Positions 7,690 through 41,751 of a stretch of DNA of 64,000 nucleotides are shown one piece after another. Positions within the stretch are counted from its first letter, which is position 1. Every line of letters starts with the position of its first letter. Location of the stretch: the NCBI GenBank assembly GCA_041916775.1, contig JAYRYZ010000001.1:295825-359824 (forward strand), read 5' to 3'. Below the pieces are notes generated by a model. It was not told the origin of the DNA, made no database searches, and saw only the letters and a program-made list of their open reading frames with translations. Origin of the DNA: Rhodocyclaceae bacterium (GTDB taxonomy: Bacteria > Pseudomonadota > Gammaproteobacteria > Burkholderiales > Rhodocyclaceae). Made by a program: the position numbers and the translations under genes.

Positions 7690-9116
7690 TGCGCGTGGAC
7701 GAGCTGCGCGCCGCCTTGGCCGTGCCGCCGGGCGACGATACGGGCGCCGGGGTCGTGTTCGACCGGGTCGAGACCGACAGCCGCACGCTTGCGCCAGGGG
7801 CGCTGTTCGTCGCATTGCGCGGCGACAACTTCGATGGCCACGATTTCGTCGCGGCAGCGGCAGAGCGCGGGGCGGCGGCGGCGCTCGTGGATCGCGCCTG
7901 GTTCATGGGGCAGTCGCGGGAGAGCCTGATGCTGCCCGTCGTGGCAGTGGACGATACGCGGATTGCGCTCGGACAACTCGCCGGGTGCTGGCGTGTGCGA
8001 TTCCGGATTCCACTGATCGGCGTAACGGGAAGCAACGGCAAGACCACGGTGAAGGAAATGTGCGCCGCGATCCTGCGCGCGCAGGCGGCCCGCGAGGGTG
8101 CCAGCGCCGAGGACGTGCTTGCCACCGGCGGCAACTTCAACAACGACATCGGTCTGCCGCTCACCCTGTGCAGGCTGCGTGCTCATCACCGCGCTGCGGT
8201 CATCGAGATGGGCATGAACCATCCGGGTGAGATCGCTTACCTGACGCACATTGCGAGGCCCACCGTGGCGGTGGTGAACAACGCCCAGCGTGCCCATCTC
8301 GAGGGCATGGGCTCCGTGCAACAGGTGGCGGAGGAGAAAGGAACGATCTACGCCGGGCTGGGTGACGACGGCATTGCGGTGATCAATGCCGACGATCCGC
8401 ACGCCGATTACTGGCGTGGATTGAACACCGGGCGGAACTGCGTGGTGTTCGGCATGCACGGTGACGCCGACGTGTGTGGTGACTTCCGCTCTCATGGTCT
8501 TGGCGGCGTGCTGGAGATCCGCACCGCCACCGAGTCGGTCGAGGTGTCGTTACGCGTTGCTGGCCAACACAATGCGGCCAACGCTCTCAACGCCGCAGCC
8601 TGCTGCCTCGCCGCGGGGGCGACGCTTGCGGACGTCAGCGCCGGGCTCGCCGGGTTCGAGGGTGTGAAGGGGCGCTTGCAGCGGGTGGCCGGACCGCACG
8701 GCGCGCTCATCCTCGACGATACCTACAACGCCAATCCGGACTCGGTGCGTGCCGGTATCGATGTGCTCGCCAGCACCCCCGGACATACCGTGCTGGTGCT
8801 CGGCGACATGGGCGAGGTGGGCGAGACCAGTGCCCAGGTGCATGACGAGATCGGTGGCTATGCGAAGAGCAAAGGCGTCGACGGCCTGTTCGCGCTGGGT
8901 GAGATGAGCACGGTGGCGGTGCGCAATTTCGGTGAGGGTGCGCATCACTTCAGGACGCCGGAGACGCTCGTCGCCGCGCTCGTGCGGCAGCTCGGCGCGG
9001 ACACGGTTGTGCTCGTCAAGGGTTCGCGCTTCATGCGCATGGAGCGTGTGGTGAATCTGCTTGCCGCAGTGCACAATAGCGCCCCTTCGATCAATGGGGG
9101 CTCCCATGCTGCTTGA
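7686..9116 (+). CDS. murF: UDP-N-acetylmuramoyl-tripeptide--D-alanyl-D-alanine ligase
   Basis: 476 aa Mur ligase; [11 protein letters not shown]-loop; dcw position. Confidence 0.9.
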
Positions 9117-25565: not shown

Positions 25566-28500
25566 CTATCTCGCCCGATCCCCGCTGCCGGGTGCGTCCG
25601 GACCGCCCGGCAGCAGGCCGCTCATGCGCTCGACCAGGCCGGACAGGCGCTTCATCTCGTCCCACATCGCGTGATCCATGCGCATCTTGCTGTAGGTGGC
25701 GGTGACCAGTGGTGCGATGACCTTCTCGTAGATCTCGTGCATCTCGCGTAGCGTGTCTGTGAGGCAGTCCACATTGGGCGGATCGATCTCGATGTGCGGC
25801 TCGATCGCACGGATGCCGGCGGCGAGCTCCGCCAGCCCTTCTCGCAGGCTGGTTTCGAGCGCTGGTGCGGCGCGCAGGCCTTCCACCGCGCGCGCGATGT
25901 CGAGCAGCGTGCCGGCGATGCGGGTGCTGCCGTCGGTGTCGTCGCCACCCAGCTTGCGCCGGCGCACGAACTCTTCCTTGATCTCCGTCCAGCGGGCCGT
26001 TTCCTCCGCGGTCTGGCTGCCGAGCAGTTCGGCGAGCCGCAGCAGGTTCTCCTCGGCGCCGCTGGTGAGCGTCTGCGCCTCACCGCGGTAGTGGTCGCGC
26101 AGCAACGCATCGAGCTCCTCGTCTCGCATGAGCGGGGTGATCGCGGTGGCGAGCTTGGCCATGTTGCGATAGCTGCCCTGCAGCTTGAATGGCGGCTCGT
26201 TGCGATAGGCGTCGTCCTGGGCGGCCGACTCGATGTAGGCAAGATTCACCTTCAGGAGCAGGTCGCGGGCGCGGAAGAGGCGCTTCACCAGGCTCGCGAG
26301 CTCGTTGAGCTCGGCGCTGCTGTAGCCGTGACTGAAGGCGCTGTCGGCGAGGTCCTCGCCCTCGGCGAGGCGCACCAGGCGATGCACATCGGCCGGGTCG
26401 CGCGAGGCGAGCGGCAGCAGCAGCGGGTTGGCGGTGAGGCTGTTCTCGATGTACGACAGCGCGAAGAGGTCCTCACGCCCGGCGAGGACGTCGCCCAGGT
26501 TGTAGATATCGGCGCGGTTGGCGAGCATGTCGGGGATCTTGAACACGTCGCCGGACTCGGTGTAGGGGTTGCCCGCCATCACCACCGCGAAGCGCTTGCC
26601 GCGAAGGTCGGCGGTCCATGGCGTGCCGTTCTGCACCGCCTCGATGCGGCGCGTGCCGTCGGCGAGCGCGATGAATTTCTGCAGGAACTCCGGGTTGGTG
26701 TGCTGGATGTCATCGAGATAGAGCATCACGTTGTTGCCCATCGCGAGTCCGAGGTTGAGCTTCTCGAGCTCCTGACGGGCGGCGCTGTGGGTGGCGCCGG
26801 CCGGGTCGATGGCGGTGACGTCGTGCCCCAGCGCCGGGCAATTGATGCGTACGAAGATCATGCCGAGGCGGTCGGCGACATACTCCATGAGCGTGGTCTT
26901 GCCGTAGCCTGGCGGCGAGATCAGCAGCAGCAGGCCGGAACGGTCGGAGCGGCTGGCATCGCCCGCGGCGCCGATCTGACGGGCGAGGTTGTTGCCGATG
27001 ATGGGCAGATACACCTCGTCGATGAGGCGGTTGCGCACGAAGGAGGACAGCGGCTTGGCGCGGAACTGGTCGAGCTGCAGGCGACGCTTCTCGTCCGCGA
27101 CGAGTTGCAGGCGCAAGGCCTGGAGGCGTTCGAAGGCGGGCACATGGGTCGCGCGATGCTGGCGGAAGCGGCGCCAGAAATCGTTGAGGTTGAGCGCAAG
27201 CGTGCCGCCTGCGATGCTGGCATGCTCACCCAGGAGGCCGGATACCACCTTGTCTAGCGCGACGTTGAGGCGTTTGCGCTCGCCGCTGCCCAGCCACAGC
27301 GTGGCGGCGTCCGGCACCCACGGCAGCAGCCGGTCGTGCGCCGCGCCTGACGCGTTGGCCGCCTGCTTGTCGGCCTCGGCATCGCGGTGTGCGGCAAAGG
27401 CCGAGAGCCATTGGCGTGCCAGCTGCCAACGCTCGGCCGGTGCAGCGGCTTCGAGGTCTGCACGCAGCTCGGCCAGCCGGGCACTGCGCTCCAGTTGGCG
27501 TTGCAAGTCCTCGCTCAGTGTCGCGCCGCTGCCGGCCACCACCCAGGCCTCATGGCCGCGCGGTTCGGCGATCTGTCGCACCAGGTATTGTGCCGCCTCC
27601 TGCAGCAGGGCCTCGTCCGGGGCGAAGCCGAACCCGGGCGCGAAGGTGGCGAGCTTGCGGGCCGCGTCCTGTTCCGCCTGCCGCAGCGCCGCGTCATGGC
27701 CGAACAGCGCGTGCATCTGCAGCGCGGCGCGCGCCTGGCGCTGCAGGCTGTCGCGGTCCTGCTCGAAGCCGCCGAACTGCCAGTAGCAGAACGCGAGCGC
27801 GCGCGCCTCCGGGCCGTAGGCGAGCAGTTGCGCGTCGGCCTGCATCACGACCAGCGCGCGCAGGAGCCAGGCCGCGTCATGGTCGTGCACACCGCGCTGG
27901 TAGCCTTCCTGATAGCGGCTGGCGCTGCTGCGGCGGACCAGATCGAGGAGCGGATCGTGGCCCTCGGCGGGGCTTGCGCAGAGCGCCTGCAGGCTTGCCC
28001 AGTCGATGTCGCCACGCCCTTCCAGCGCATCGACGAGCAGGCTGCCGGCGAGGTATTCGGCGCGGCAGAGGCCGCCGCTCTCGGAGACCAACGAGACATC
28101 CCACCACGGGCGCAACGCCTCCAGCGCGGCGTCGTTCGCGGGCGCGAAGTAGTCGGTGCCGGTGAGGTGGAAGGCGAGCCCGCCCTGGCGTGGGACCAGG
28201 GTAAGGTCCAGCGTCTGGCGGTTGACGGTGAAGGCGTGGCGGCCGAAGCGCAGCGTATTGCCGTCCTCGGCGACCAGCTCGCGGCGGTCGCGTACCGCGC
28301 GCACCGCCTGGTCGCGTGCGGTACGCAGGCGGGTGTCGAGGTCGTCGGCCGCGACGCTGGCGCCCAGCGCGCGCAGCTCGGCGATCTGGCTGCGGAGCTT
28401 GGTGAGCAGCGGATCACCGGCGAAATAGCTGTGCACCTGCTCCAGCTCGCCGAACTGTGCGATCCGGCGGGGAATGCCTTCCAGCACCCGTGCCGCCGCA

Positions 28501-30860
28501 TCGGCGAGGGCCTGGCTGCGGCGCTGGCGGGCCTCGCTGAGTGTCTGGCGGCGGGCCGCGACGGCTTCCACCAGCGCCTCGCGCTTGTTGGCGAGGGTTT
28601 CGATGAAGCCCTCCTGCTCGGCGAAGCGGCCCTCGATCTCTTCGAGCTGCGCGAGCAGGCGGGTCAGCGCGTCATCGCACTTCTCCGGGGTGTCGGCGAG
28701 CGCCAGCGCGTTCTCCACCGCCTGGCCGAAGAGCTGGATCTGCGCGCCGAACTCGGCGGCGGCTTCGCGGCTGCCGAGCGCACGGCCGAGCTTGCGTGCC
28801 TCGGCGCGCAGGCGATTCACCTCGGCATAGACCGCCCCGATGCCATCGAGGATGCGCGTGCGCAACAGCGCGTCGCCGCCGGGCAGGTTGCCGAGCTGCT
28901 CGGTGAGGAGGTCGAGGCCGCTGCCGGTGTCGTCCAGCAGCTTGACCTGCGCCGCGATCTCGCTGCTGTTCGCAGCCTGCGGCAGGGTGGCGGCGACCTG
29001 CGCGAGGGTGCTGCGGTAGCCGTCGAAGGCGTGCTCTTCCGACAGGAAGCGCAGGGCGCGCTCGGAGACGCGCTGCTGCGCCTCGTCCACCGCGGCTTCG
29101 AGCGCGGCGATACCGGGGATGTCGGCGTAGCGCAGCTCGCGCAGCATCTGCAGCCGTCCGCGTTGCTCGCGCAGCTGGCCGAGGGCGCGGACGAAGTCGT
29201 CCGGCTTCTGCCACAACATGCCGGCGATGCGGGTCATCAGCTCGCGCTGGGCCAGCTCGGCGGTGTCGAGTGCCTGTCGGGTGTCGCGGCGGATGCTCTC
29301 GATCTTCTCGAACTCGTCGAGCGTGTTGCGCGCGCCGTCCTGGATGGCGCGGACATCCTCGGCGAGCTTGCCGGCTTCATCCGAATCCAGCCAGAAGTAG
29401 GCGTCCAGCGCGCGGCCGCAGTGGCGGATGAGCGCGTCGTAGGCGTTGCGGGTCGGCGTCTGCTCGGCCACCGCGCGTGCGATCGCGGTGAGCTCGGCGA
29501 TGCCGCGCACCAGCTCAGGGTTGCCGATGCGGGCGAAGAAGCCCTGGCTGCTGCGCTCGGCGGTGGCGTGCTCCTCGCTCACGTAGGGTGTCTGCCAGAG
29601 CTGCATCGGGTGGTTGCGCGTGGCGTCCGGCCCCTCGGCCTGGAACACCAGCATGCGGCCATCCTCGAAGCGCGCGTAGCCGTTGCAGAGAATGGGCGTG
29701 GTGAGCGACTTCTCGATCAGGTTGTAGGAGAAGAGCGCGTAGTGGCCCACGCCGGGTTGGTAGAACACGTACAGCACGTCCTCGCCATTGGGCGAGCGCA
29801 GCATGCGCTTGAAGCGCAGCCCGTCGCGCATCTCGGCGGGCAGGTCGAAGCGCTTGGTCTCGCCCGACTGCAGGTAGTAGCCGCCGGGAAAGATGATGCC
29901 GTGATCCTCGGGCAGCTGGATGCACGAGCGGCCGATGGCATCGATGCGGGTGGCGGTGAGGGTGCGGGTGTTGAACACCAGGTAGCGCTCGTCCTTCTCG
30001 CGATACGGACGGATGCGCAGGAGGATCAGCGATCCGATGCGGGCGTAGGCGATCTCGGCATCGGTGAGCGACTGGCTCCTGTCCTCGACCGGCTCGGAAT
30101 AGATACCGAGGCCGGATTCGGTGTTGTTCTCGACCTTGATCGTGAGATCACCGCCGATCGTCTCGACGAACACGGTGTCGAGGATGTTCACATGCGGATG
30201 GCGCCCGCCGACATGGTTGTCGCGGGTGGTCTGGGTCCATTCGAAATCGTGCGTCGGGGGCAGGGCGATGTCGCGTTCGCCGCGATTGTCGATGTAGCTC
30301 AGACGCCCGCCCGGTTCGACGCTCCAGCGGAACACGCGCAGGTCGGTCGCCTGCTGGCCGATCTGGAACGCCGCCAGCAGCTTGTGCTGGTGCACACGCA
30401 GCTGGATCAGGCTGGCCTGCCTGTAATAGGTGTAGAGCTCGCGGAAATCGGCGACGAAGCGTGTGTCGTCGAGAAAGCTGCCGGCAATCGGCACGGCGAG
30501 CAGATCCTCGCTGCCCGGGCCGCCTTCCTCGTCCAACCGGTAGAGTCCGAACACGTCCGAGACCGCGGTCTCCTTGCGCAGTCCGATGAAGACGTTGTAG
30601 CCGAACAGCAGCAGGTCGCCGATGCGCACCAGGTCGCGGGCGATGCAGTTGTTCTCGGTACGTGCGCGGGTGCGCCCGATCAGCGCCTGCTCGGCGCGGC
30701 CGAACTCCTCCAGCCGCGCCGTGTTGAGCGCCGTGGTCTTGCGCAGCAGCTGGCCGCCGAGGTCGGTGAGGCGCTTCTTCAGCAGGGCATAGCTGCCGCT
30801 GTCGGCGACGAGCGCCTCGGTGGCGTCGGCTGCAACGGCGGCGCTGGCTTGGTCGGACAT
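25566..30860 (-). CDS. very large (1764 aa) conserved hypothetical protein with one AAA+ ATPase core of MoxR/AAA_5 type near the C-terminal third and long alpha-helical/coiled-coil central region
   Basis: single uninterrupted ORF; Walker A ISPPGYGKTTL, Walker B VMLYLDDIQ, sensor-like VVMAGNPYTESG...ADIY; about 330 aa of helical heptad-like sequence in the middle; antisense 1203-aa ORF judged spurious; last gene of the PspA/flotillin operon. Confidence 0.8.
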   Translation of the reverse strand: MSDQASAAVAADATEALVADSGSYALLKKRLTDLGGQLLRKTTALNTARLEEFGRAEQALIGRTRARTENNCIARDLVRIGDLLLFGYNVFIGLRKETAVSDVFGLYRLDEEGGPGSEDLLAVPIAGSFLDDTRFVADFRELYTYYRQASLIQLRVHQHKLLAAFQIGQQATDLRVFRWSVEPGGRLSYIDNRGERDIALPPTHDFEWTQTTRDNHVGGRHPHVNILDTVFVETIGGDLTIKVENNTESGLGIYSEPVEDRSQSLTDAEIAYARIGSLILLRIRPYREKDERYLVFNTRTLTATRIDAIGRSCIQLPEDHGIIFPGGYYLQSGETKRFDLPAEMRDGLRFKRMLRSPNGEDVLYVFYQPGVGHYALFSYNLIEKSLTTPILCNGYARFEDGRMLVFQAEGPDATRNHPMQLWQTPYVSEEHATAERSSQGFFARIGNPELVRGIAELTAIARAVAEQTPTRNAYDALIRHCGRALDAYFWLDSDEAGKLAEDVRAIQDGARNTLDEFEKIESIRRDTRQALDTAELAQRELMTRIAGMLWQKPDDFVRALGQLREQRGRLQMLRELRYADIPGIAALEAAVDEAQQRVSERALRFLSEEHAFDGYRSTLAQVAATLPQAANSSEIAAQVKLLDDTGSGLDLLTEQLGNLPGGDALLRTRILDGIGAVYAEVNRLRAEARKLGRALGSREAAAEFGAQIQLFGQAVENALALADTPEKCDDALTRLLAQLEEIEGRFAEQEGFIETLANKREALVEAVAARRQTLSEARQRRSQALADAAARVLEGIPRRIAQFGELEQVHSYFAGDPLLTKLRSQIAELRALGASVAADDLDTRLRTARDQAVRAVRDRRELVAEDGNTLRFGRHAFTVNRQTLDLTLVPRQGGLAFHLTGTDYFAPANDAALEALRPWWDVSLVSESGGLCRAEYLAGSLLVDALEGRGDIDWASLQALCASPAEGHDPLLDLVRRSSASRYQEGYQRGVHDHDAAWLLRALVVMQADAQLLAYGPEARALAFCYWQFGGFEQDRDSLQRQARAALQMHALFGHDAALRQAEQDAARKLATFAPGFGFAPDEALLQEAAQYLVRQIAEPRGHEAWVVAGSGATLSEDLQRQLERSARLAELRADLEAAAPAERWQLARQWLSAFAAHRDAEADKQAANASGAAHDRLLPWVPDAATLWLGSGERKRLNVALDKVVSGLLGEHASIAGGTLALNLNDFWRRFRQHRATHVPAFERLQALRLQLVADEKRRLQLDQFRAKPLSSFVRNRLIDEVYLPIIGNNLARQIGAAGDASRSDRSGLLLLISPPGYGKTTLMEYVADRLGMIFVRINCPALGHDVTAIDPAGATHSAARQELEKLNLGLAMGNNVMLYLDDIQHTNPEFLQKFIALADGTRRIEAVQNGTPWTADLRGKRFAVVMAGNPYTESGDVFKIPDMLANRADIYNLGDVLAGREDLFALSYIENSLTANPLLLPLASRDPADVHRLVRLAEGEDLADSAFSHGYSSAELNELASLVKRLFRARDLLLKVNLAYIESAAQDDAYRNEPPFKLQGSYRNMAKLATAITPLMRDEELDALLRDHYRGEAQTLTSGAEENLLRLAELLGSQTAEETARWTEIKEEFVRRRKLGGDDTDGSTRIAGTLLDIARAVEGLRAAPALETSLREGLAELAAGIRAIEPHIEIDPPNVDCLTDTLREMHEIYEKVIAPLVTATYSKMRMDHAMWDEMKRLSGLVERMSGLLPGGPDAPGSGDRAR

Positions 30861-30946: not shown

Positions 30947-33055
30947 CTACGGCTTGCCGCGGAAGCCGTCCAGCAGCGTCTGCAGTGCGGCCTTCTGACT
31001 GTCGTTGCCGTCGCGCAGCACCTTGGTCAGGAGTGCAGCGACCGAGAGGTTCTGCAGCTCGCCCGATGCGCCACCCAGCGCGCCGACGATGTCGCGCACG
31101 TCGCTCACCATGTCGCGCTCGCCATCGAGGTGATCCTTCAGGCCGATCTGCAGCGTCTGGCTCTTGGCGATCGCACCGTCTATGCCCTTGCCCACGGACA
31201 GCGCGTTGACGAAGCGGTCGAAGTAATCGCCCTGGCCGCCGACGATGTCGATCTTCGCGTTGGCGAGCGCAGTGCCGAGCACGTCCGCCTGCTCGCGGGC
31301 GATGGAGGTCTGGGCGTCGATGGCCTTGAGGGTCTCGACGTGCGCGTTCTCCAGGCGCATGCGGAATTCCTCGTGGGCGCGGGTGTCCTCGCTCATCGCC
31401 TTCATCGCCTCGAACTTCTCGCGCAGGCCCTTGGCCTCGGCGTTGAAGCGGGCCTCGACCACCTGCGCCTCGGCCAGTCCGATCTTGATCACCGCGTCGG
31501 CGTCGGCCGCCTTGACGCCGACATCGGCAAGCCCCATGCGCTCCTTGCCCTCGGCTTCGGCGCTCAGGCGCGCCTGCAGCGCTTCGGCTTCGGCATGGCC
31601 GTACTTCACCACCGCTTCGGCCTCGGCGATCTTCACCTTGGCATCGACCAGACCCTGCTTCTCGCGGGCGTCGGCGGTCACCATCATGACCTTCGCTTCG
31701 GCAAGACCCTCGGCCGCGGTCATGGCCTCGATGCCCTCTGCTTCGCGCTTCTTCGCCTCCGCCTGCTTCTCGGCGATCTTCAGGCGCGCCTCGGCCATCG
31801 TCAGCTCTTCGGACGCGGCGTGGCGGGCGCGGCGTTCGAGCGCTTCGGCGGCCTTGACCTCCATGATCATCTTTTCCTCGGCCTGGCCTTCGGCGAGAAT
31901 GATGGTCGATTTCTTGGTGCGATCGGCTTCGGCGAGCACGCGCAGCTCCTTGATCGCCTCTTCCTGTTCCGCGACGGTGCGCTCGACCACGATGCGCTCG
32001 CGCACCACGTCGGCGATCGCCTTCTTCTGCACCTCCACCGCACGATCCTTGTCGATGCGCTGCAGAGTGACTTCCTTCTCGCGGTCGACCACCTCCAGCT
32101 CACGTGCGCGGATGACCTTCTCTTCCTCGATCGCCACGGCGCGCAGGCGGTTGTTCTCGGCGACTTCCTTCTCGCGCAGCACGTTCTCCTGCTGCACGGT
32201 GATGAGCTGTTCGGCCTGCAGGCGGGCGAGCTCGGCCTTGGCGTGTTCTTCCGAGCGGATGCGTTGGGTTTCGGCCTGCTCGCGGGCCTTCACCGATTCG
32301 ACCTCGCGGGACTGGCGCGCCTCGGCGTCGGCCTGCTGGCGCTCGAGCTCGAGCAGCGCCTCGCGCGTCTCGACGTCCTTCTTCTTGATCTGCATCTCCT
32401 CGTTGCGACGCAGCTCGTTGGTGCGCACGTTTTCCGCGGCGGTGAGCTCGGTGATCTTCTTGATGCCCTGGGCGTCGAGGATGTTGCTCGGGTCGAGCTT
32501 GGAGAGCGGGGTTTGCTCGAGGTAGTCGATCGCCGCATCCTCCAGCACGTAGCCCGAGAGGTCGTCGCCGATCTGCGCGATGATCTCGTCGCGGAAGCGG
32601 TCGCGCGCCTGATAGAGCTCGACGAACTCCATCGACTTGCCCACCGTCTTGAGTGCCTCGGAGAACTTGGCGGAGAAGAGCTCCTCCAGCGTCTCGGGGT
32701 TGGAGGCGCGGGCGCAGCCGATGCCCTGCGCAACCTTGAGCACGTCCTCGGCGGTCTTGTTCACCCGCACGAAGAACTTCACCTTGATGTCGGCGCGGAT
32801 GTTGTCCTGGCAGATCAGTCCGTCGTGCCCGGTGCGGTCGATCTCGACCGTCTTGAGCGCGATGTCCATCATCTCGGCCTTGTGGATGATGGGATACACC
32901 ATGCGGCCGGTGAAGGTGACGTCCGGCTCGCTGTTGAGGGTGTTGACGATCATTGCGTAGCCTTGCTCGACCTTGCGGTAGAACTTCGCAAGCATCACGA
33001 ACAGGCTGAGCACGATGAAGGCCACGATGCCGGTGACGATCAGGATGAGCTCCAT
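30947..33055 (-). CDS. flotillin-family SPFH (band 7) protein, long form (702 aa) with extended Ala/Glu-rich coiled coil
   Basis: N-terminal TM MELILIVTGIVAFIVLSLFVMLA then SPFH domain (YRKVEQGYAMIV...) then several hundred aa of EA-repeat coiled coil; GGGGA RBS before ATG 33055; YqiK-like. Confidence 0.85.
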   Translation of the reverse strand: MELILIVTGIVAFIVLSLFVMLAKFYRKVEQGYAMIVNTLNSEPDVTFTGRMVYPIIHKAEMMDIALKTVEIDRTGHDGLICQDNIRADIKVKFFVRVNKTAEDVLKVAQGIGCARASNPETLEELFSAKFSEALKTVGKSMEFVELYQARDRFRDEIIAQIGDDLSGYVLEDAAIDYLEQTPLSKLDPSNILDAQGIKKITELTAAENVRTNELRRNEEMQIKKKDVETREALLELERQQADAEARQSREVESVKAREQAETQRIRSEEHAKAELARLQAEQLITVQQENVLREKEVAENNRLRAVAIEEEKVIRARELEVVDREKEVTLQRIDKDRAVEVQKKAIADVVRERIVVERTVAEQEEAIKELRVLAEADRTKKSTIILAEGQAEEKMIMEVKAAEALERRARHAASEELTMAEARLKIAEKQAEAKKREAEGIEAMTAAEGLAEAKVMMVTADAREKQGLVDAKVKIAEAEAVVKYGHAEAEALQARLSAEAEGKERMGLADVGVKAADADAVIKIGLAEAQVVEARFNAEAKGLREKFEAMKAMSEDTRAHEEFRMRLENAHVETLKAIDAQTSIAREQADVLGTALANAKIDIVGGQGDYFDRFVNALSVGKGIDGAIAKSQTLQIGLKDHLDGERDMVSDVRDIVGALGGASGELQNLSVAALLTKVLRDGNDSQKAALQTLLDGFRGKP

Positions 33056-33140: not shown

Positions 33141-33770
33141 TCAGGCCTCGGCCTGCACCCGGTAGCGTGCCGAGGCCGGGTCGTAGTCGATGATGATGGC
33201 CGTGCCACCGCGCTTGAGCGTGTTGGGCGAATCCGCCACGACCCGGATGTTGATCGATGCGCCGCCCGTCTCCACCTCGGCGCGGCCAAAGGATTCATCC
33301 ACCTTGCCGGTGAGGATGCGGCAGCTGCGCCCGACCAGCGAGGCGTTGGAGACTGCGCTGTGGGTGACGAACAGCCGGCGCATCGGGCGGATCGCGATCG
33401 CGGTGAGCGGGATCGACACCGTGATCGCCACGAGCAGCGCCACGGTGCCCGCAACGAGGCTCAGTATCGCGGTGGGAACCAGCGGCAGCAGCCACAGCCC
33501 GGCGGCGCAGGTGATCGTCCAGCCGGTCAGCACGAGCAGGCTGGCGACGATGGAGAACGGTACGCCACCCAGGCCGAAGGCCACCAGCTTCGCGGCGATC
33601 GAGTCGATCTCGCCGAGATCGGCATCTGCGTCGAGCTCGAGCGCAGGACCGCCGTGCTCGAAGTCGACGAGGCCAACCAGGGCCAGCAACCAGTAGATCA
33701 GCACCACCCCGAGCAGCACCGTGTAGATCGCGGCGGGATAGCTGATGACGACATCGGTGAGGCTGGGCAT
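33141..33770 (-). CDS. NfeD-like / YqiJ-like membrane protein (membrane helices + C-terminal OB-fold)
   Basis: 210 aa from Met at 33770; 3-4 hydrophobic helices then soluble beta-rich C-terminus (GRSCRILTGKVDESFGRAEVETGG...), the arrangement seen upstream of flotillin genes (yqiJ-yqiK). Confidence 0.7.
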   Translation of the reverse strand: MPSLTDVVISYPAAIYTVLLGVVLIYWLLALVGLVDFEHGGPALELDADADLGEIDSIAAKLVAFGLGGVPFSIVASLLVLTGWTITCAAGLWLLPLVPTAILSLVAGTVALLVAITVSIPLTAIAIRPMRRLFVTHSAVSNASLVGRSCRILTGKVDESFGRAEVETGGASINIRVVADSPNTLKRGGTAIIIDYDPASARYRVQAEA

Positions 33771-34176: not shown

Positions 34177-34874
34177 GCCGCCCCCTGATCCTTGCGTGCG
34201 CGGATGCGGGCCATCACCTGGCGCTTGCGCTCGGCGTCGCCGCCGATGCCGGCGTCGGCGAGCTTGGTCTCGAGCGCGCGGGTTCCGGTCTCCTTGTCCA
34301 ACGTCTCGGCCGCAGCGAGGCGGTCGGCCATCTCCTCGTGGCGGCGCTTGATGCGCTCCAGCGAGTCCTTGGCATTGGAGAGCTTGGAGCCGCTCGCGAC
34401 GATGCTGTCGGAGATCGAGCGGGTGGCCTTGTAGACGCTCTCGGTGGTGCGTGCCATCGCCACCTCGCGCTCGTGCTCGCGCACCTTGGTCTCGGCGGTG
34501 CTGATCATGTCCCTGAGCTTGCCGACCTGCAGGGCGTAATCTGCATGCGCGCGCGTCTGCTCGTCGAGCTCGGCTTCCGTGGCTGCGATCTTTGCGGCAA
34601 CTTCCTCGGCCAGGTCGTCGCGGCTCTTCTCCAGCGCCTCCAGCGCCAGGCCCTCGAGGCGGACGATCTCCTTGCGGATGCGCTCGATCTCGCGGGCGCT
34701 CTGCATCTCCTTCGCCATCACGCCGGTGAGGTCGTTCCTGGCCTTGAGGATGGCGTTGCGTGCGTCGATGATCTCCTGCTCGTAGATGCGGGTGGCGTTG
34801 GCGTCGACCACGCTCTCGCCGATTTCACGTGCGCTGCCGCGCACCAGGGTGAGGATCTTTCCCAAAACGCTCAT
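34173..34874 (-). CDS. PspA/IM30 (Vipp1/ESCRT-III superfamily) phage-shock-protein-A-like protein
   Basis: 233 aa all-helical, MSVLGKILTLVRGSAREIGESVVDANATRIYEQEIIDARNAILKARNDL... typical PspA/IM30 N-terminal helix and coiled coils. Confidence 0.85.
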   Translation of the reverse strand: MSVLGKILTLVRGSAREIGESVVDANATRIYEQEIIDARNAILKARNDLTGVMAKEMQSAREIERIRKEIVRLEGLALEALEKSRDDLAEEVAAKIAATEAELDEQTRAHADYALQVGKLRDMISTAETKVREHEREVAMARTTESVYKATRSISDSIVASGSKLSNAKDSLERIKRRHEEMADRLAAAETLDKETGTRALETKLADAGIGGDAERKRQVMARIRARKDQGAA

Positions 34875-34885
34875 GTTCGCCTCCT

Positions 34886-35302
34886 TCAGGCAAGGTAGTC
34901 CGACAGGGCCTCCAGCGCATCGAGGGCGTTGTCGCTCAGCGCGGCCACGTCCAGTGCGATGTCCTCCATGCGCGCGTCAGCGGACAGGGCGCCGAACAGC
35001 ACGTAGCGGTCATCGACCCTGCCGAACGACGACAAGGGGATGGACACGTTCAGGTCGAGCATCGCCTCGAGAAGCCCGGTACGCTTCGCCGGGGCGACCT
35101 CCAACTCGGTCCATAGGTAGCAGATGCAAAGGATCTGGGCGTCGGAGGTGGTGATGAAGATGGGCAGCTCGTTGCGTCCTTCGATCACCACCTGGATCAC
35201 CGGCACCTCGCCTGCAATGGGCTGCAGCTCGACGCCGACGCCCCCGAGCCTCGCGCCGACCAGTGTGTCTAGCCCTGCGATCCGTTGTTGCAACGTGTTC
35301 AT
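34886..35302 (-). CDS. 138-aa conserved hypothetical, first gene of the operon; tentative match to DUF2170/YjfI family that accompanies PspA-like YjfJ
   Basis: 11 nt upstream of the PspA-like gene; acidic soluble protein; family assignment from memory only, not verifiable here. Confidence 0.5.
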   Translation of the reverse strand: MNTLQQRIAGLDTLVGARLGGVGVELQPIAGEVPVIQVVIEGRNELPIFITTSDAQILCICYLWTELEVAPAKRTGLLEAMLDLNVSIPLSSFGRVDDRYVLFGALSADARMEDIALDVAALSDNALDALEALSDYLA

Positions 35303-35344
35303 CGCCTGTTCTCCCCTGACGTTTAGAAGTGCATCGACATGTGC

Positions 35345-35395
35345 AATCTAGGGAGTCTGACATAAGATGTCAAGACATTTTATGTCAGACTCCCT
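35345..35395 (-). promoter_or_regulatory. sigma70-type promoter TTGACA-N17-TAGATT (minus strand) embedded in a perfect 16-bp inverted repeat AGGGAGTCTGACATAA-N14-TTATGTCAGACTCCCT
   Basis: read on minus strand: TTGACA (35374-35369), 17-nt spacer, TAGATT (35350-35345), about 40 nt upstream of the operon ATG at 35302; IR arms 35350-35365 and 35380-35395; locally AT-rich in GC-rich DNA. Confidence 0.55.
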
Positions 35396-35573
35396 CCGTG
35401 CTGTTCCTGCTTGCCGTCCGCAAACAGCGCTTACGAAAGCCGGGATTATCTCATCGGCATGAACGAAGGTGGCGGAAGAATCGCGTGCGGTATTCCGTTG
35501 GCAAAGTCATTGCGGGTGTCTTTTCGCCTAGGCGGCTGGCAGGGCGCCCGACTGCCGCTGCCGTCCAGCCCGC

Positions 35574-38300
<2,727 letters not shown>

Positions 38301-38319
38301 GCTTGTCCTCCGTGCTTCG

Positions 38320-41300
38320 TCATTCGGCCCCCAGATTGCGCAACATTGTGCCGATGCTGCGCTCCGCGCGCGCGAAGTCGAAGCCGTCGAGCGCTGACAT
38401 GAGGATTCGCCATTCATCCAGGAGCGTTTGCGGCAGTGCGACTGCGATCGCCTCCAGGCGGGCCTCATCCACGAACTCGTGGTTGCGCGCGGCGTCGTGC
38501 AAGGACTTGAGTGCGCGCACCGGGTCGACTGCGGGCGGCACATCGCGCGCGCGCGAAGCTTTCGCGTCAGGCCGCGCCAGCCATGCGCAAATGGCACTGG
38601 TGGTGCGTACCAGGGTCGTCTCGAAGTCTGCGATCGCCTGCGGCGACGGTAGGAGCCCGGACTTGAGTGCCTCGTCGAGCGTCGCTGTTGCCGACGCGAG
38701 CGGGGCAAGTGCCAGGTTGCCTGCAACGCCTTTGAGGCTGTGTGTGTGTTGCTGCAGTGCGGCCCGGGTGGCCGGCGAGGGGGCGGCCGACAGCGCGACG
38801 AGTTGCTGCGGCAAGGCCGCGTAGGTGCCGCGGAGCTGCGTCAGCAGCTCATCCAACAGGCGTTCATACAGGGCTTGGTTGCCGTCCAGCATGGCCACGC
38901 CAAGAGTCGGCGAGAAGAGTGCCTCGACGGCCAGTGTTGCGGATTGCCCGGAAGTAGGCGCGGAACAGGGCCCGGGGACGTCGGCAGGGGGCATCCTCGG
39001 GCCGGCGGACGTCTCTGCCGCTGCGGGTAGCCAGCGCGCGAGCGTGGCATGCAGCGCGACCGGGTCTATCGGTTTGCCGAGGTGATCGTTCATGCCGGCG
39101 GCACGTGCCTTGAGCTTGTCGTCCGACATCACAGCCGCAGTGAGCGCGATCACCGGCAGGGTGAAACCGTGGGCACGTAGCCGGCGAGTCGCCTCGTACC
39201 CGTCCATGATCGGCATCTGGATGTCCATGAGGACCAGATCGAAGCTGCCCTTCTCGGTCTCCTGGAGTGCCTCCCAGCCGTTGCGCGCGGTCACGACTTC
39301 AAGGCCCAGGGCGCGTAGCTGTGCAGTGGCCACCTCCTGGTTGATCGCGTGGTCCTCGACCAGCAGCACCCGGCCGACGAGCCGGCGAAGCGACAGGCCG
39401 TCGCCGGCGCTGCGCGCGAGCAGCGCGCGCATCTCCTCGGCGCTGCAGCGCCCGAGTGCAAGCGTGAAGCTGAAGGCTGCACCCTGGTTGGATGCGCTCG
39501 CGAGTTCGATGCCTTCTCCGCCCATCGCCTCCACCAACCTCTGGCTGATTGCAAGCCCGAGGCCGGTGCCGCCGTGCTCGCGGGTGATGGAGGCGTCTGC
39601 CTGCTTGAATGCCTGGAATAGCCGCGGTTGTTGTGCCGGGTCGATGCCGATGCCGGTGTCGCTGACGCTGAAGCGGAGCCGGTCGGCGACGCCATCCGTC
39701 GAGTCGCACTCCACCTGCACGATGACCTGGCCGTGATCGGTGAACTTGATCGCATTACCGATCAGGTTGGTGAGGATCTGGCGGATCCGAAGTTCGTCGC
39801 CGACGTAGCCCGGTGCAGCCTCGGGCGCTACGACCAGCGCGAGCTGCAGCCCCTTTGCGCTGGCCATGGGTTCGAACAGGTCGCGCAGGGCGTCGATCAG
39901 CACCGCGAGGAAGAAGGGCTGTGGGGCGATCGCCAGTTTGCCCGCTTCGATGCGCGAGAAATCGAGGATGTCGTTGAGGATGCCAAGCAGCAGTTGGCCG
40001 GACTGGTGGATCTTCTGCAGCGCTGCGCGTAGCGCGGCTGGGTCGCGCTCGCCGGCTGCCAGCTGACTGAGGCCGATGATCGCGTTCATCGGCGTGCGAA
40101 TCTCATGGCTCATGTTGGCGAGGAACGCCGACTTGGCCAGGTTGGCCTCGTCTGCCGCCAGCCTGGCGGCCTCGAGCGCGTGTTCGGCTTCCTTCTGCAC
40201 CGTGACGTCGCGACCGCTTCCGCGGTAGCCGGTCAGCGAACCCGCGTCATCCAGCGTCGGGAAGCCGTCCGTGGACATCCACACGATATGCCCGTCCTTA
40301 TGCACGACCGGATTGACCATGCCCTTGATCGACTGCCGCGCCTCCATCAGCTGCATGGCTGTCTGTGCAAACGCGCTACGTCCGGCCTCGGGGTGGAGTT
40401 CGAAGAAGTGCCGTCGGCCGACCAGCTCATCGCGGCGAAAGCCCCACACGGCCTCACAGACGGGGCTTACGTAGGTGTAGAGGCCGTCGCGGTTCACCTC
40501 CCAGCTGACGGTGCCACTCTGCGCGGCGAGTTGCATCAGGCGAAGTTCGTTGTCGGCGATGGCCTGTTGCGCGCGCTTGAGCTCGGAGATGTCCTGCACG
40601 AAGGACCAGATCACCGGCCGGCCTTCGCTGGTGGTGGTGCCGAACCCCTGCACGAGTACCGGGTAGCGGCTGCCGTCCTTTCTGACGAAGGTGCGCTCGA
40701 AGGGGCCGAAGCGCCCGCTTCGCTCGAGCGCCTGGCGCTGCAGCGCCTCCTGGTCTGCATCGCCTGCAGGCGCGATATCGTTGGGGTGGAGCTGTGCGAA
40801 CGCCTCGGCCGTGTATCCGGCGGGTTCGTTGATGGCAGCGTTGAACTCGAGGAGGGCGCCGCTGAGCTGGTCGTTCATCGCAATGCCCACCGGTGCGTTC
40901 TCGAACAGGTTGCGGAACTTGGCCTCGGCGGACTTGAGCTGGGTGATGTTGGTGTGGGTGCCGAGCATGACCGCGGGGCGGCCGTCCTCATCCCACTCGA
41001 CCACGCGTCCGCGGCTCTCGACCCAGACCCACTCGCCGTGTGCGCTGCGCAGGCGAAAGGCGGTGCTGAAGGCGTTGTCGCGCGCGATGCTATCGGTGGC
41101 CTCGTCGAGCACCCGCGCGCGATCCTCCGGATGCAACTGTTCGGTGAACACGGCGATGTCGAGCGTGAAGGCGTCGGGCGGATAGCCGAGCTGGCGGAAG
41201 GCGCGCGCCGACCACTCGACCTTGTCCGAGCGCAGGTCCCAACGCCACATGCCGGTGTCGGAAGCCTCCATCGCGAGTTCCAGGCGCAGCTTGGTGTCTT

Positions 41301-41751
41301 CCAGGGCGAGCTGCTGGAGCTTGCGCTCGGTGATGTCGTAGATGTAGCCGTTCCACAGCGTCGAGCCGTCCATCAGCCGCTCTGGCGTGGCGCGGCCTTG
41401 TAGCCAGCGCTCGCCCTTCGCGGGGTGACGGTAGCGGTACTCGCACTCCCACACCGAGAGGGTCTCGGCGGAGTGGCGGATGCTCTGCGCCACCTCGGCG
41501 AGATCGTCCGGGTGCAGCCCGGCGAACACCGGCGCGGCGGACTCGCGCACGGCTTCGGGTGTCAGCCCGTACATGTCCTCGATGCCTGCCGTGCTGTATG
41601 GAAAGCAGCTGCGGCCATCGGGATACTGGCGGAATTGGTAGAGCATCCCCGGCGTGTTCGCAGCGAGCCGGGAGAGCTGCCGCTTTTGCTCGTGTTCGGC
41701 CGTGCCGTCGGTGTGGGCGCCGCTTGCGCCCTGCGAGTCGAGGTTGGTCAC
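38320..41751 (-). CDS. soluble multi-PAS hybrid histidine kinase: 4x PAS - HisKA - HATPase_c - REC - HPt
   Basis: 1143 aa, no TM; H-box [17 protein letters not shown]; receiver LVLMDIQMP...LGKP; C-terminal HPt [14 protein letters not shown]; GTG start. Confidence 0.85.

Follow-up and report, generated by a model that had tools for sequence, protein, structure and literature searches.

The window, that is, the whole stretch of 64,000 nucleotides analysed, harbors an operon of six genes on the minus strand. Gene 1 (34886..35302) encodes a YjfI/BacA-like protein of 138 residues with a DUF2170 (CesT/Tir-like) domain (Pfam PF09938, E = 3.8e-30), which also gives a partial match to the NCBIfam BacA model. 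[quoted passage not shown] Gene 4 (33141..33770; extent from translation and orthologue length) codes for a hydrophobic protein of 209 residues without a Pfam match, which probably corresponds to the YqiJ/YuaF-type membrane protein described for operons of this class (PMC11237479). Gene 5 (30947..33055; extent from orthologue length) codes for a protein of ~702 residues that the initial annotation had called a flotillin. This label receives no support from Pfam, as no match, to the band-7/flotillin domain or any other, is found at E <= 0.1; it rests on the published description of the operon class, in which the gene is called band-7/flotillin-like by profile-profile methods (PMC11237479). Gene 6 (25566..30860) encodes a giant protein of 1764 residues with DUF3686, DUF7902, and AAA+ ATPase domains (Pfam PF12458, E = 1e-197). 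The same gene order is found at loci L001, L004, and L005. With its DUF2170, PspA_IM30, and giant AAA+ ATPase genes on one strand, the operon belongs to the bac-like class.

The yjfI-pspA operon class is widespread in Proteobacteria and includes the bac cluster of P. aeruginosa, implicated in biofilm formation and virulence. This cluster, bacABCDEF (PA3732-PA3727), likewise starts with the YjfI/BacA gene, followed by genes for PspA, a membrane protein, a large flotillin-like protein, and a giant AAA+ ATPase. What has been published on the regulation of the class amounts to a sigma-54 site derived from sequence and an unexplained "negative control by BacA". The sigma-54 promoter of the Pseudomonas bac operon was proposed from sequence only, and the papers cited here neither describe an operator nor mention an RHH gene for this class (PMC10948618, PMC2587700, PMC11237479). 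In the window, neither the operon nor the gene upstream of it shows a sigma-54 activator domain in a domain search, and no -24/-12 element is apparent on reading positions 35303-35573.

The intergenic region displays instead a sigma-70-type promoter embedded in a palindrome, as the initial annotation had recognized. On the minus strand, a -35 hexamer TTGACA (35368..35373) is followed, 17 nt further, by a -10 hexamer TAGATT (35345..35350). The distance from the -10 box to the ATG of gene 1 (35302), previously given as about 40 nt, is exactly 42 nt. With 10 of 12 positions matching and 0.2 sites expected, this is the sole sigma-70-like site in 34800-36000, and its hexamers, its spacing within the 16-18 nt range, and its location upstream of a gene make it, as judged from sequence, a sigma-70 promoter. 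Transcription is predicted from promoter geometry to start at ~35338, in a minus-strand region (35336..35340) located ~7 nt past the -10 box that overlaps an extra ATGTC half-site. A Shine-Dalgarno sequence GGGGAG, read from the sequence, lies at 35311..35316, 8 nt before the ATG. The region forms a local AT-rich island, also noted earlier, with a GC content of 0.47-0.50 over 35300-35450 against 0.62-0.74 in the flanking genes.

The palindrome spans 46 bp (35350..35395). Its plus strand reads AGGGAGTCTGACATAA at 35350-35365, and positions 35380-35395 are the exact reverse complement, so that the perfect 16-bp inverted repeat announced in the initial annotation is confirmed, together with its near-palindromic 14-nt centre, GATGTCAAGACATT. 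In a repeat search, the arms grow to 22 nt at 95% complementarity around a 2-nt centre, and a 14-nt direct repeat, GACATAAGATGTCA / GACATTTTATGTCA, appears with a spacing of 15 bp. The palindrome can be described as two tandem 13-bp dyads, surrounded by lineage-specific outer arms. The promoter-proximal dyad, D3 (35359..35371), reads GACAT-CTT-ATGTC on the minus strand, is centred at about -27, and extends over part of the -35 hexamer into the beginning of the spacer; the -35 hexamer itself consists of the central TT of the palindrome and the first four bases of D3. The promoter-distal dyad, D1 (35374..35386), reads GACAT-AAA-ATGTC on the same strand, is centred at about -42, and adjoins the -35 hexamer on its upstream side. 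The two dyads thus present four GACAT 5-mers of alternating orientation, the centres of which are 8, 7, and 8 bp apart.

Conservation was assessed over a non-redundant set of 140 regions upstream of yjfI, taken from Alpha-, Beta-, Gamma-, and Zetaproteobacteria and from Thermodesulfobacteriota. The motif TTGACAT-N3-ATGTC is perfect in 139 of them, with variable N3 and flanks. The -35 hexamer TTGACA is invariant, its TT being retained even at loci lacking the upstream dyad, and a TAnnnT sequence occurs at the exact 17-nt spacing in 73% of the regions. This promoter geometry is kept although the upstream neighbour genes differ between orthologous loci. At locus L218, a longer gene cluster with yjfI in its interior, the motif still lies directly upstream of yjfI. 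No other non-coding element is as conserved at these loci as the dyad over the -35 box and the spacer; this dyad is more conserved than its flanks and shares four bases with the -35 box, features by which it would qualify as a repressor operator, in line with the geometry proposed earlier. As for the inverted repeat taken as a unit, the dyad symmetry is real, but the selected unit is the 13-bp GACAT-N3-ATGTC, present twice, rather than the 16-bp arms. The conserved functional unit is thus, on comparative grounds, this 13-bp dyad fused to the -35 box. The motif TTGACAT-N3-ATGTC can serve as a search motif for defining a regulon in any genome.

The number and the position of the dyads vary. Among 69 loci picked by protein similarity alone, 56 possess a single 13-bp dyad and 13 the tandem arrangement of D1 and D3; D3 is also the dyad of lineages with only one. 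A genome scan for double dyads finds D1 at no fewer than 67 yjfI-linked loci, and in all such sites listed TTGACA is oriented toward yjfI. Carriers of the double dyad include the cultured relatives Parazoarcus communis (L123), Denitromonas halophila (L196), and Azovibrio restrictus (L175). The layouts observed comprise one dyad alone and two dyads, the second being located either upstream (the type of the window) or on the downstream side of the -10 box, and one locus displays three dyads. Such variation would resemble that of auxiliary operators, D1 being a putative second, auxiliary operator. The position of D1 at about -42 is also the classical class II position of an activator, and some RHH proteins, AvtR among them, can act as activators as well as repressors (PMC5569661); a protein bound to D1 might then turn the operon on. 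We hold this to be very unlikely, since the promoter, with its consensus -35 box, its spacer of the optimal 17 nt, and its usable -10 box, calls for no activator, most lineages lack D1, and the universal dyad is D3, which lies within the -35 box and the spacer, so that a protein bound there should exclude sigma region 4.

A conspicuous palindrome in an intergenic region could also stem from a dispersed repeat of the REP, BIME, or MITE type. In the 64-kb window, however, a search for the 16-mer with up to 3 mismatches returns just the two palindrome arms (0.14 matches expected), and no further single dyad is found in it at 1 mismatch. Among the matches listed in the genome scan, each proteobacterial genome has one double dyad, located upstream of yjfI, except for one metagenome-assembled genome (MAG) with two. 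An unrelated core, GACATGTCATGTCTAGACATGACATGTC, fits the degenerate search pattern and is multi-copy in three Bacteroidota MAGs, but these repeats have a different sequence and no linkage to yjfI. A REP or MITE identity, which the initial annotation had named as a possible refutation, is rejected by the window and genome scans, and the dispersed-repeat origin is barely credible. The second site of the exceptional MAG precedes a gene for a YgaP-like inner-membrane protein, which speaks for a trans-acting factor whose regulon is small.

The initial annotation stated that no regulator is encoded in the operon, for which the analysis gives no support. Gene 3 encodes a small RHH-like protein that travels with the motif: all 65 loci chosen for protein similarity contain it, as do distant alpha, zeta, and Thermodesulfobacteriota loci with a different, four-gene layout, so that gene 3 and the motif co-occur in at least two operon layouts. 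Conversely, yjfIJKLMC of E. coli has YjfI and PspA, with neither gene 3 nor the motif. This negative control for co-occurrence stems from one lineage, the Enterobacteriaceae, and it stays so because a homologue search with E. coli YjfI returned enterobacterial relatives only; moreover, the observations linking gene 3 to the motif are phylogenetically dependent, as co-occurrence lies largely within one operon family. No GACAT dyad lies in the vicinity of two distant gene 3 homologues that belong to other contexts (L208, L209), and three further loci of distant homologues (L211, L219, L220) are too short for the co-occurrence check. A spermine-synthase-type operon (L214/L215), the only class in which a survey of PSP systems noted a terminal RHH gene, carries a divergent gene 3 homologue together with a symmetric variant dyad, GTCAT-AAT-ATGAC, directly after a TTGACA-17-TAAATT promoter; such a dyad occurs in 4 of 20000 shuffles. 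Protein and site may possibly have co-varied in this case.

Gene 3 itself has no Pfam or NCBIfam match, and its fold was approached by prediction. The AlphaFold2 model based on a 66-sequence alignment reaches a pLDDT of 87.5. It shows a first unit composed of an extended segment (18-26) and two helices (27-39 and 44-51), and a second unit composed of a segment (52-70) and two helices (71-81 and 88-113). DSSP assigns no β-strand in either monomer model; the models are single chains, and the two strands are not paired within one chain, whereby gene 3 might dimerise unit-to-unit instead. With Foldseek, the model superimposes at 0.8 Å over 34 columns on both CopG bound to DNA (1ea4) and the Rv0298 antitoxin; for NikA and Arc, the fit is 1.5 Å over 36 columns. 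RHH proteins are prominent among the top matches, with global E-values of at least 0.5, below significance. An earlier model from a 32-sequence alignment was mostly helical, with a pLDDT of 74, and Foldseek was uninformative with it; F relaxosome chains of 110 to 118 residues, perhaps those of TraY, were among its matches.

Among 66 members of the gene 3 family, Pfam matches comprise NikA-like (9/66, best E = 7.7e-6), RHH_1 (5), RHH_10 (4), and FitA-like (3) domains, and two homologues are named "RHH CopG domain" proteins in UniRef. A PDB profile search with gene 3 aligns FitA, NikA, and AvtR to the same segment at E = 0.6-1, below significance, while PHROGs returns matches to families of unknown function only. 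Comparison of the N-terminal unit with the C-terminal unit by hhalign gives a weak signal on the deeper alignment (P = 0.0036, with reference RHH sequences); the hhalign internal-repeat test on the shallow alignment detected no repeat. The only invariant or nearly invariant strand residues of the family are Q20, F23, R62, and R64, which would fit as DNA-reading residues facing the invariant half-site. Gene 3 thus apparently adopts, according to the models, an RHH-like fold with two β-α-α units.

CopG of plasmid pMV158 is a small RHH repressor of the operon that encodes it; it recognizes a 13-bp (pseudo)symmetric element over the -35 box of Pcr, next to which further CopG copies bind cooperatively. 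The promoter region of the window would be analogous, with a 13-bp element over the -35 box and a candidate RHH repressor from its own operon. CopG, however, is a single RHH motif of 45 residues that dimerises, compared to the 117 residues and two β-α-α units of gene 3; the operator sequences are unrelated, and CopG controls plasmid copy number instead of a chromosomal membrane-stress operon. The met-boxes of MetJ and the heptads of omega are short units repeated every 7-8 bp in direct or inverted orientation, each read by one RHH β-ribbon, and the 8, 7, 8 bp spacing of the GACAT 5-mers resembles them, although sequences, cofactors (S-adenosylmethionine for MetJ), and biological roles differ. 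A spacing of 8 bp between half-site centres is unusual for helix-turn-helix dimers. Two RHH motifs are found within one polypeptide in TraY of the F plasmid (PMC12117103) and in the archaeal-virus protein AvtR, which represses its own gene (PMC5569661); a monomer of this type can read an asymmetric half-site. AvtR is matched by gene 3 in both the structure and the sequence searches, in all cases below significance.

Binding of the gene 3 product to the dyads, and repression thereby, may be proposed on this basis. Our preferred reading, which we regard as fairly probable, is that the sigma-70 promoter of the six-gene yjfI-pspA-type operon contains two tandem 13-bp operators and that gene 3 reads them in a process of autorepression. 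One or more copies of the gene 3 product would sit on the four alternating GACAT 5-mers. The proximal operator D3 has its first four bases in the -35 hexamer and reaches into the spacer, with D1 upstream, and the occupied operators would keep sigma region 4 off the -35 box. The outcome would be negative autoregulation of a membrane-stress operon, and the tight repression and induction suggested in the initial annotation may apply. That repression would be relieved by a partner switch, in which the chaperone-like YjfI and/or PspA take part, is a guess only. As in the classical Psp system, a PspA-family gene would be held down until needed; in E. coli, this system relies on the enhancer-binding protein PspF, on sigma-54, and on PspA as an anti-activator (PMC2587700). 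The window operon differs in having a sigma-70-type promoter with a repressor-type dyad, and neither PspF, PspB, nor PspC. A conserved operator on a sigma-70 promoter and a candidate operon-encoded RHH repressor together offer a concrete, cheaply testable regulatory model.

The dyads might, however, be a repressor operator with another binder, either a regulator encoded elsewhere or a complex with YjfI/BacA or PspA. The constant location of the motif directly upstream of yjfI, even in the longer cluster of L218, would agree with this, as would the fact that DNA binding by gene 3 is supported at the fold level and below significance. When bacA, the P. aeruginosa homologue of yjfI, carries a transposon, the downstream Bac proteins (BacB-F) increase 6- to 13-fold, and the annotated bac operon has no 117-residue gene between bacB and the gene for the 23-kDa membrane protein (PMC10948618, PMC2587700). 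YjfI-dependent control thus exists, or may exist, without gene 3. The bac operon thus shows signs of negative control, as is proposed for that of the window; the former, however, has a proposed sigma-54 promoter and, as annotated, no 117-residue gene, the latter a sigma-70-type promoter and gene 3. The transposon result may nevertheless be polar, or come from a promoter inside the transposon. Furthermore, neither YjfI, with its fold of the CesT/T3SS-chaperone type, nor PspA, a coiled-coil membrane protein, is presented as a sequence-specific DNA binder in the papers cited here (PMC10948618, PMC11237479), and E. coli possesses both without the motif. The occurrence of the element across five bacterial classes with varied neighbours requires a factor travelling with the operon. 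A binder other than gene 3 is therefore unlikely. A literature search for the operator strings retrieved nothing relevant.

Beyond the dyads, the palindrome possesses outer arms of 9 bp, which read AGGGAGTCT on the minus strand in the upstream flank of D1 (35387..35395) and AGACTCCCT on the same strand at 35350..35358, the latter filling the spacer through the first T of the -10 hexamer. The outer 9 bp of each 16-bp arm are not the same in close relatives, and most lineages lack them. Compared to L001, the YjfI protein of which is 96% identical to that of the window, the outer arms show three compensated changes. Extensions of at least 4 bp are present in 16 of 75 double-dyad sites, with 0.74 expected and a maximum of 4 in 2000 shuffles, and the covariation score of 0.157 (0.100 +/- 0.009 in shuffles) is attained in 0 of 500 shuffles. 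Judging from these comparisons, the perfect outer arms are a lineage-specific extension outside the conserved recognition site, and the palindrome has been extended into its flanks repeatedly and independently in separate lineages.

That the outer arms vary in sequence yet stay complementary would suit a functional hairpin or cruciform, either a supercoiling-sensitive cruciform hiding the -35 box or an RNA hairpin insulating the operon from upstream read-through. The AT-rich centre and GC-rich arms, the compensated changes, and the excess of extensions and covariation all favour pairing, and the window hairpin has, as single-stranded DNA, a dG of -18.4 kcal/mol (z = -7.3), within a range of -18 to -25 kcal/mol for extended sites compared to -11 kcal/mol without extension. 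The lone 13-bp dyad of the 56 similarity-chosen loci, however, has a negligible hairpin potential (-2.7 kcal/mol, z = -1.1), ~80% of the double-dyad sites display little or no extension, and conservation bears on the 5-mers instead of on pairing. The hairpin would lie outside the transcript if the start is at ~35338. It is followed by TAGATTGCAC, devoid of a T-run, and no intrinsic terminator-like site is found in 34800-36000. Extension shows no clear difference with upstream gene orientation (10/15 vs 19/41), the orientation calls, made from the longest ORF, being crude, noisy, and wrong for the window itself. In Rfam, only three microRNA-precursor models are matched, at 17-21 bits versus gathering scores of 53-90; these generic hairpin matches are all sub-threshold, so the palindrome is not a known RNA. 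A hairpin as the functional entity is consequently improbable, and operators read by gene 3 remain the preferred reading of the conserved dyads.

A bolder version of the proposal sees in gene 3 a single-chain, two-unit RHH repressor that reads the asymmetric GACAT 5-mers and acts as a master switch, overlooked so far, of a widespread PspA/flotillin/AAA+ membrane-stress module independent of PspF, its release from DNA being governed by a YjfI and/or PspA partner switch. Separately, the tandem operators would form a self-extending palindrome, one flank being copied onto the other time and again by template switching, which would make the promoters of some lineages prone to cruciforms. We consider this combination doubtful. 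Recurrent lineage-specific growth of the palindromes constitutes a small natural data set, which could separate mutational (template switching) from selective (hairpin function) causes in promoters. Work by Ripley and Lovett reportedly describes the correction of quasipalindromes by intramolecular template switching. Such switching would generate perfect, lineage-specific complementary flanks around a palindromic core, often through multi-base changes. Template switching, or alternatively selection for a hairpin, may have produced the outer-arm extension, and the replacement of GAG/CTC by CGC/GCG between the window and L001 resembles a change of the quasipalindrome-correction type.

On the forward strand, positions 35350-35395 read AGGGAGTCTGACATAA-GATGTCAAGACATT-TTATGTCAGACTCCCT. 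A repeat search describes this region as an inverted repeat with 22-nt arms, 95% complementarity, and a 2-nt centre, in which a 14-nt unit is also directly repeated with a 15 bp spacing. The minus strand carries the sole sigma-70-like site found between 34800 and 36000, TTGACA (35373-35368), 17 nt, and TAGATT (35350-35345); no terminator-like site was found in that interval. The GC content is 0.47-0.50 at the palindrome region versus 0.62-0.74 in the flanking genes, and the ATG of the first gene, preceded by GGGGAG, lies at 35302. The palindrome, promoter, and AT-rich island of the initial annotation are correct in every detail. The core reads GACAT-AAA-ATGTC TT GACAT-CTT-ATGTC on the minus strand, one 5-mer used four times with its orientation switching from copy to copy, which can also be viewed as two 13-bp dyads in tandem, the distal D1 (35374-35386) and the proximal D3 (35359-35371). 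The -35 hexamer consists of the central TT and the GACA of D3.

Orthologous loci, taken by protein identity and from metagenomes, have different upstream neighbours and an identical core upstream of yjfI, the first gene. TTGACAT-N3-ATGTC is perfect in 139 of 140 usable non-redundant yjfI upstream regions, with one mismatch in the remaining one; the sole apparent exception (L070) is a locus without upstream sequence. TAnnnT follows at the 17-nt spacing in 73% of these 140 regions, and the median distance from the element to the start codon is 73 nt. Among 69 metagenome loci chosen by protein similarity only, D3 is found in all and D1 in 13, the Comamonadaceae-like majority having a single dyad. 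What is conserved is therefore a 13-bp dyad that merges with the -35 box, and the long palindrome of the window is the outcome of two such dyads side by side. The operator-type dyad on the promoter proposed initially is thereby retained, while the 16-bp inverted repeat is replaced as the unit. That the dyads form a protein operator on a real promoter is considered highly probable. In the single-dyad lineages of L044, L050, L054, and L074, the stretch between the -10 box and the ribosome-binding site contains another perfect GACAT-N3-ATGTC, downstream of the -10 instead of upstream of the -35, so the position of the auxiliary operator appears evolutionarily flexible.

A scan with GACAT-N3-ATGTC-N2-GACAT-N3-ATGTC, using one genome per species, yielded at least 119 matching stretches. 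At least 67 double-dyad sites are yjfI-linked, 18-115 nt upstream of a YjfI homologue with 38-75% identity. Among the matches listed, the TT is oriented toward yjfI in all 67, which belong to Beta-, Gamma-, Alpha-, and Zetaproteobacteria and one Thermodesulfobacteriota MAG, with one site per genome except in a two-site gammaproteobacterial MAG. The motif might instead have been a REP/MITE element dispersed over many unrelated loci, as the initial annotation had envisaged; this is rejected for the present element because, among the matches listed, a single yjfI-linked site is found per genome. The search for other copies of the 16-mer, proposed at the same time, returned none elsewhere in the 64-kb window with up to three mismatches (0.14 expected). 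The other matches listed are mainly unrelated palindromes, present in many copies in three Bacteroidota MAGs, and the 15-bp tandem repeat of one spirochaete MAG, plus a few single sites unlinked to yjfI (L114, L127, L139, L172, L178, and L183).

The two-site MAG carries one site at yjfI (L125) and the other elsewhere (L183:7500-7600). The latter displays D1 and D3 with outer arms of 7 bp, a TAAAGT -10 hexamer, and then a third dyad, GACATAATATGTC, upstream of a gene for an 85-aa YgaP-like inner-membrane protein (PF11127, E = 3.8e-6). It fits a small regulon of a trans-acting factor and suggests that the regulator may control more than its own operon. The Bacteroidota repeat (MAGs Co_bin.344, Saprospiraceae IP29b_bin.15, and SRP141376_co5_36; ~40 loci within L088-L204) has a multi-copy, palindromic 28-bp core, GACATG(T/A)CATGTCTAGACATG(A/T)CATGTC, often within TTAA...TTAA and unrelated to yjfI. 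Its variable flanks are complementary to each other, over 4 bp or more in 16 of 38 copies and with a maximum of 20 bp. It resembles either a REP/MITE-type element or a core that has inserted into hairpins. In Spirochaetaceae MAG RUG14230, 15-bp tandem repeat arrays, GACATTTCATGTC(G/T)T, occur at many contig ends (L112, L121, L163, L164, L167, L181, L191, L194, and L205) and fit the scan pattern by chance of its design.

The outer arms, which in the window take up 9 bp on each side of the double dyad, extend the palindrome by at least 4 and up to 9 perfect bp in 16 of 75 double-dyad sites, each with a different sequence (0.74 expected; 2000 shuffles of the flanks gave 4 at most). Compared with a relative whose YjfI is 96% identical, the window shows three adjacent arm changes that are compensated (GAG/CTC to CGC/GCG), with one difference in the 50 nt downstream. 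In a 66-sequence alignment, 75.4% of cells pair versus 71.1 +/- 0.8% in shuffles. The covariation score of 0.157 (against 0.100) was reached by 0 of 500 shuffles, and every slid control was lower. Part of this pairing signal is a C...G preference next to the core, which suggests that the operator may really be YGACAT...ATGTCR; the remainder is lineage-specific. In several lineages, the extension ends exactly at the -10 hexamer. A hairpin or cruciform may have a role in some lineages, the dG of the DNA hairpin being -18 to -25 kcal/mol when extended, compared with -11 when not. Most sites lack the extension, which is therefore dispensable for the conserved function. Intramolecular template switching at a pre-existing quasi-palindrome is regarded as the most economical cause of this recurrent palindrome growth, an additional curiosity. 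The same kind of flank extension in the unrelated Bacteroidota repeat is compatible with a general mutational tendency as well as with insertion into existing hairpins.

Six minus-strand genes lie downstream of the promoter, encoding a DUF2170/YjfI-like protein, PspA/IM30, a 117-aa protein (gene 3), a 209-aa hydrophobic protein, a ~702-aa protein (30947-33055), and a 1764-aa DUF3686/AAA+ protein. The ~702-aa protein, initially labelled flotillin, has no Pfam or NCBIfam match at E <= 0.1; flotillin/band-7-like is also the term used in the literature, and such a domain, if present, would be too divergent for standard models. The operon belongs to the "CesT/Tir-PspA + band-7/flotillin + AAA+ + YqiJ" class of Ravi et al. 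(PMC11237479), as does the P. aeruginosa bacABCDEF cluster (PMC10948618, PMC2587700). The nearest YjfI homologues carry the names Zoogloeaceae, Azoarcus, and Denitromonas, which makes the source a Rhodocyclales-like betaproteobacterium. Directly upstream of the operon, and co-directional with it, are two consecutive large ORFs (35574-41751, minus strand), the nearer of which (35574-38726) is a PAS-histidine kinase-receiver-GGDEF hybrid according to Pfam. In the close relative L001, the counterpart of this hybrid gene is preceded by a PAS-histidine kinase-receiver gene; relatives further away do not share these neighbours. In the relatives L004 (10442-10990) and L005 (10316-10879), the 700-aa and AAA+ genes are separated by an additional gene of 180-190 aa, with a faint Zn-ribbon match in L005, which neither the window nor L001 has.

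Since the element is kept across five bacterial classes with differing neighbouring genes, it would need a factor travelling with the operon. No regulator gene had been recognized in the operon, a statement revised here: gene 3 is a ribbon-helix-helix (RHH)-like candidate that accompanies the motif. In all 65 loci selected by protein similarity with enough sequence, the gene comes after pspA, and it is also found in distant loci, including a four-gene YjfI-PspA-DUF4178-like-p117 layout. E. coli yjfIJKLMC, which has YjfI and PspA, contains neither the 117-aa gene nor any GACAT dyad. The AlphaFold2 model, based on a 66-sequence alignment (pLDDT 87.5), is built of two units in which an extended segment leads into a pair of helices. 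Foldseek local fits, with E-values that are not significant, superimpose it on CopG-DNA (1ea4) and the Rv0298 antitoxin (0.8 A over 34 columns) and on NikA and Arc (1.5 A over 36 columns); further matches are VapB, FitA, AtaR, AvtR, and single-chain Arc. Pfam detects NikA-like domains in 9 of the 66 aligned family members, obtained from a search of cluster representatives (best E = 7.7e-6), as well as RHH_1, RHH_10, and FitA-like ones; two homologues are labelled RHH CopG-domain proteins in UniRef. In a PDB profile search, the matches to FitA, NikA, and AvtR all fall on one N-terminal segment (E = 0.6-1). With hhalign, using RHH reference sequences, the N- and C-terminal units match CopG with 62% and 29% probability, and aligning the two units with each other places them in register (P = 0.0036). 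The modelled fold thus resembles RHH, and single-chain tandem RHH proteins are documented in TraY (PMC12117103) and AvtR (PMC5569661). At a mean column identity of 27%, only Q20, F23, R62, and R64 are invariant or near-invariant strand residues, which would fit the invariant GACAT half-site. That gene 3 encodes the binding protein and acts as repressor is judged somewhat likelier than the contrary. Similar two-unit domains form the C-terminal 80-90 residues of 330-620-aa proteins that otherwise lack annotation and have no Pfam matches (P0325, P0337, P0346, P0352, P0355, P0380, and similar); at the one such locus examined (L208:4001-5440), the gene follows smpB and no GACAT dyad is found.

The gene 3 protein would occupy D3, plus D1 where present, probably cooperatively, and thereby exclude sigma region 4 from the -35 hexamer; with the candidate repressor gene inside the operon, the circuit would be a negative autoregulation. 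A design in which a repressor operator overlaps a sigma-70 promoter and the operon encodes its own RHH-type autoregulator is a textbook kind of element. The 8-7-8 bp spacing of the half-sites is nearer to that of RHH arrays such as MetJ boxes and omega heptads than to that of typical helix-turn-helix dimers, and CopG covers a -35 box with a 13-bp element in the same arrangement as D3. The predicted transcription start coincides exactly with an extra ATGTC half-site (35336-35340, minus strand; TAGATT-GCAC-ATGTC), which L001, L005, and L042 share but the family as a whole does not; the candidate repressor could make a further, weak contact there. YjfI itself is a type III secretion chaperone-like protein, and a P. 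aeruginosa bacA transposon mutant over-produces the rest of the operon (PMC10948618), which makes a role for YjfI in control plausible; the over-production could also be a polar effect. The Pseudomonas operon is annotated without the 117-aa gene (PMC2587700), and sigma-54 has been proposed for it (PMC10948618, PMC2587700). No description of this specific operator-gene 3 pair was found in the literature searched. The model provides a widespread, poorly understood PspA-type module with a testable regulation and a precise search motif.

In the PSP survey, an RHH gene is listed only for the spermine-synthase-type operon, as its last gene, and none is mentioned for the flotillin/AAA+ type (PMC11237479). 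The former operons follow the order AdoMet decarboxylase - DUF350 - spermine synthase - DUF2170 - PspA - X - p117-like - K+ channel, and harbor variant dyads, GTCATAATATGAC or GACATAATATGAC, directly downstream of the first gene's -10 box (L214:1600-1645, L215:520-565). In one of them, the symmetric variant GTCAT-AAT-ATGAC directly follows a TTGACA-17-TAAATT promoter; such a dyad arises in only 4 of 20000 shuffles. The gene 3 homologue of this operon has altered strand residues, a hint of possible co-variation. In L218 (dyad regions 2920-2950 and 8120-8135), the first gene has GACATAATATGAC immediately behind a TATAAT box, and a canonical GACATAATATGTC dyad lies directly upstream of the internal yjfI.
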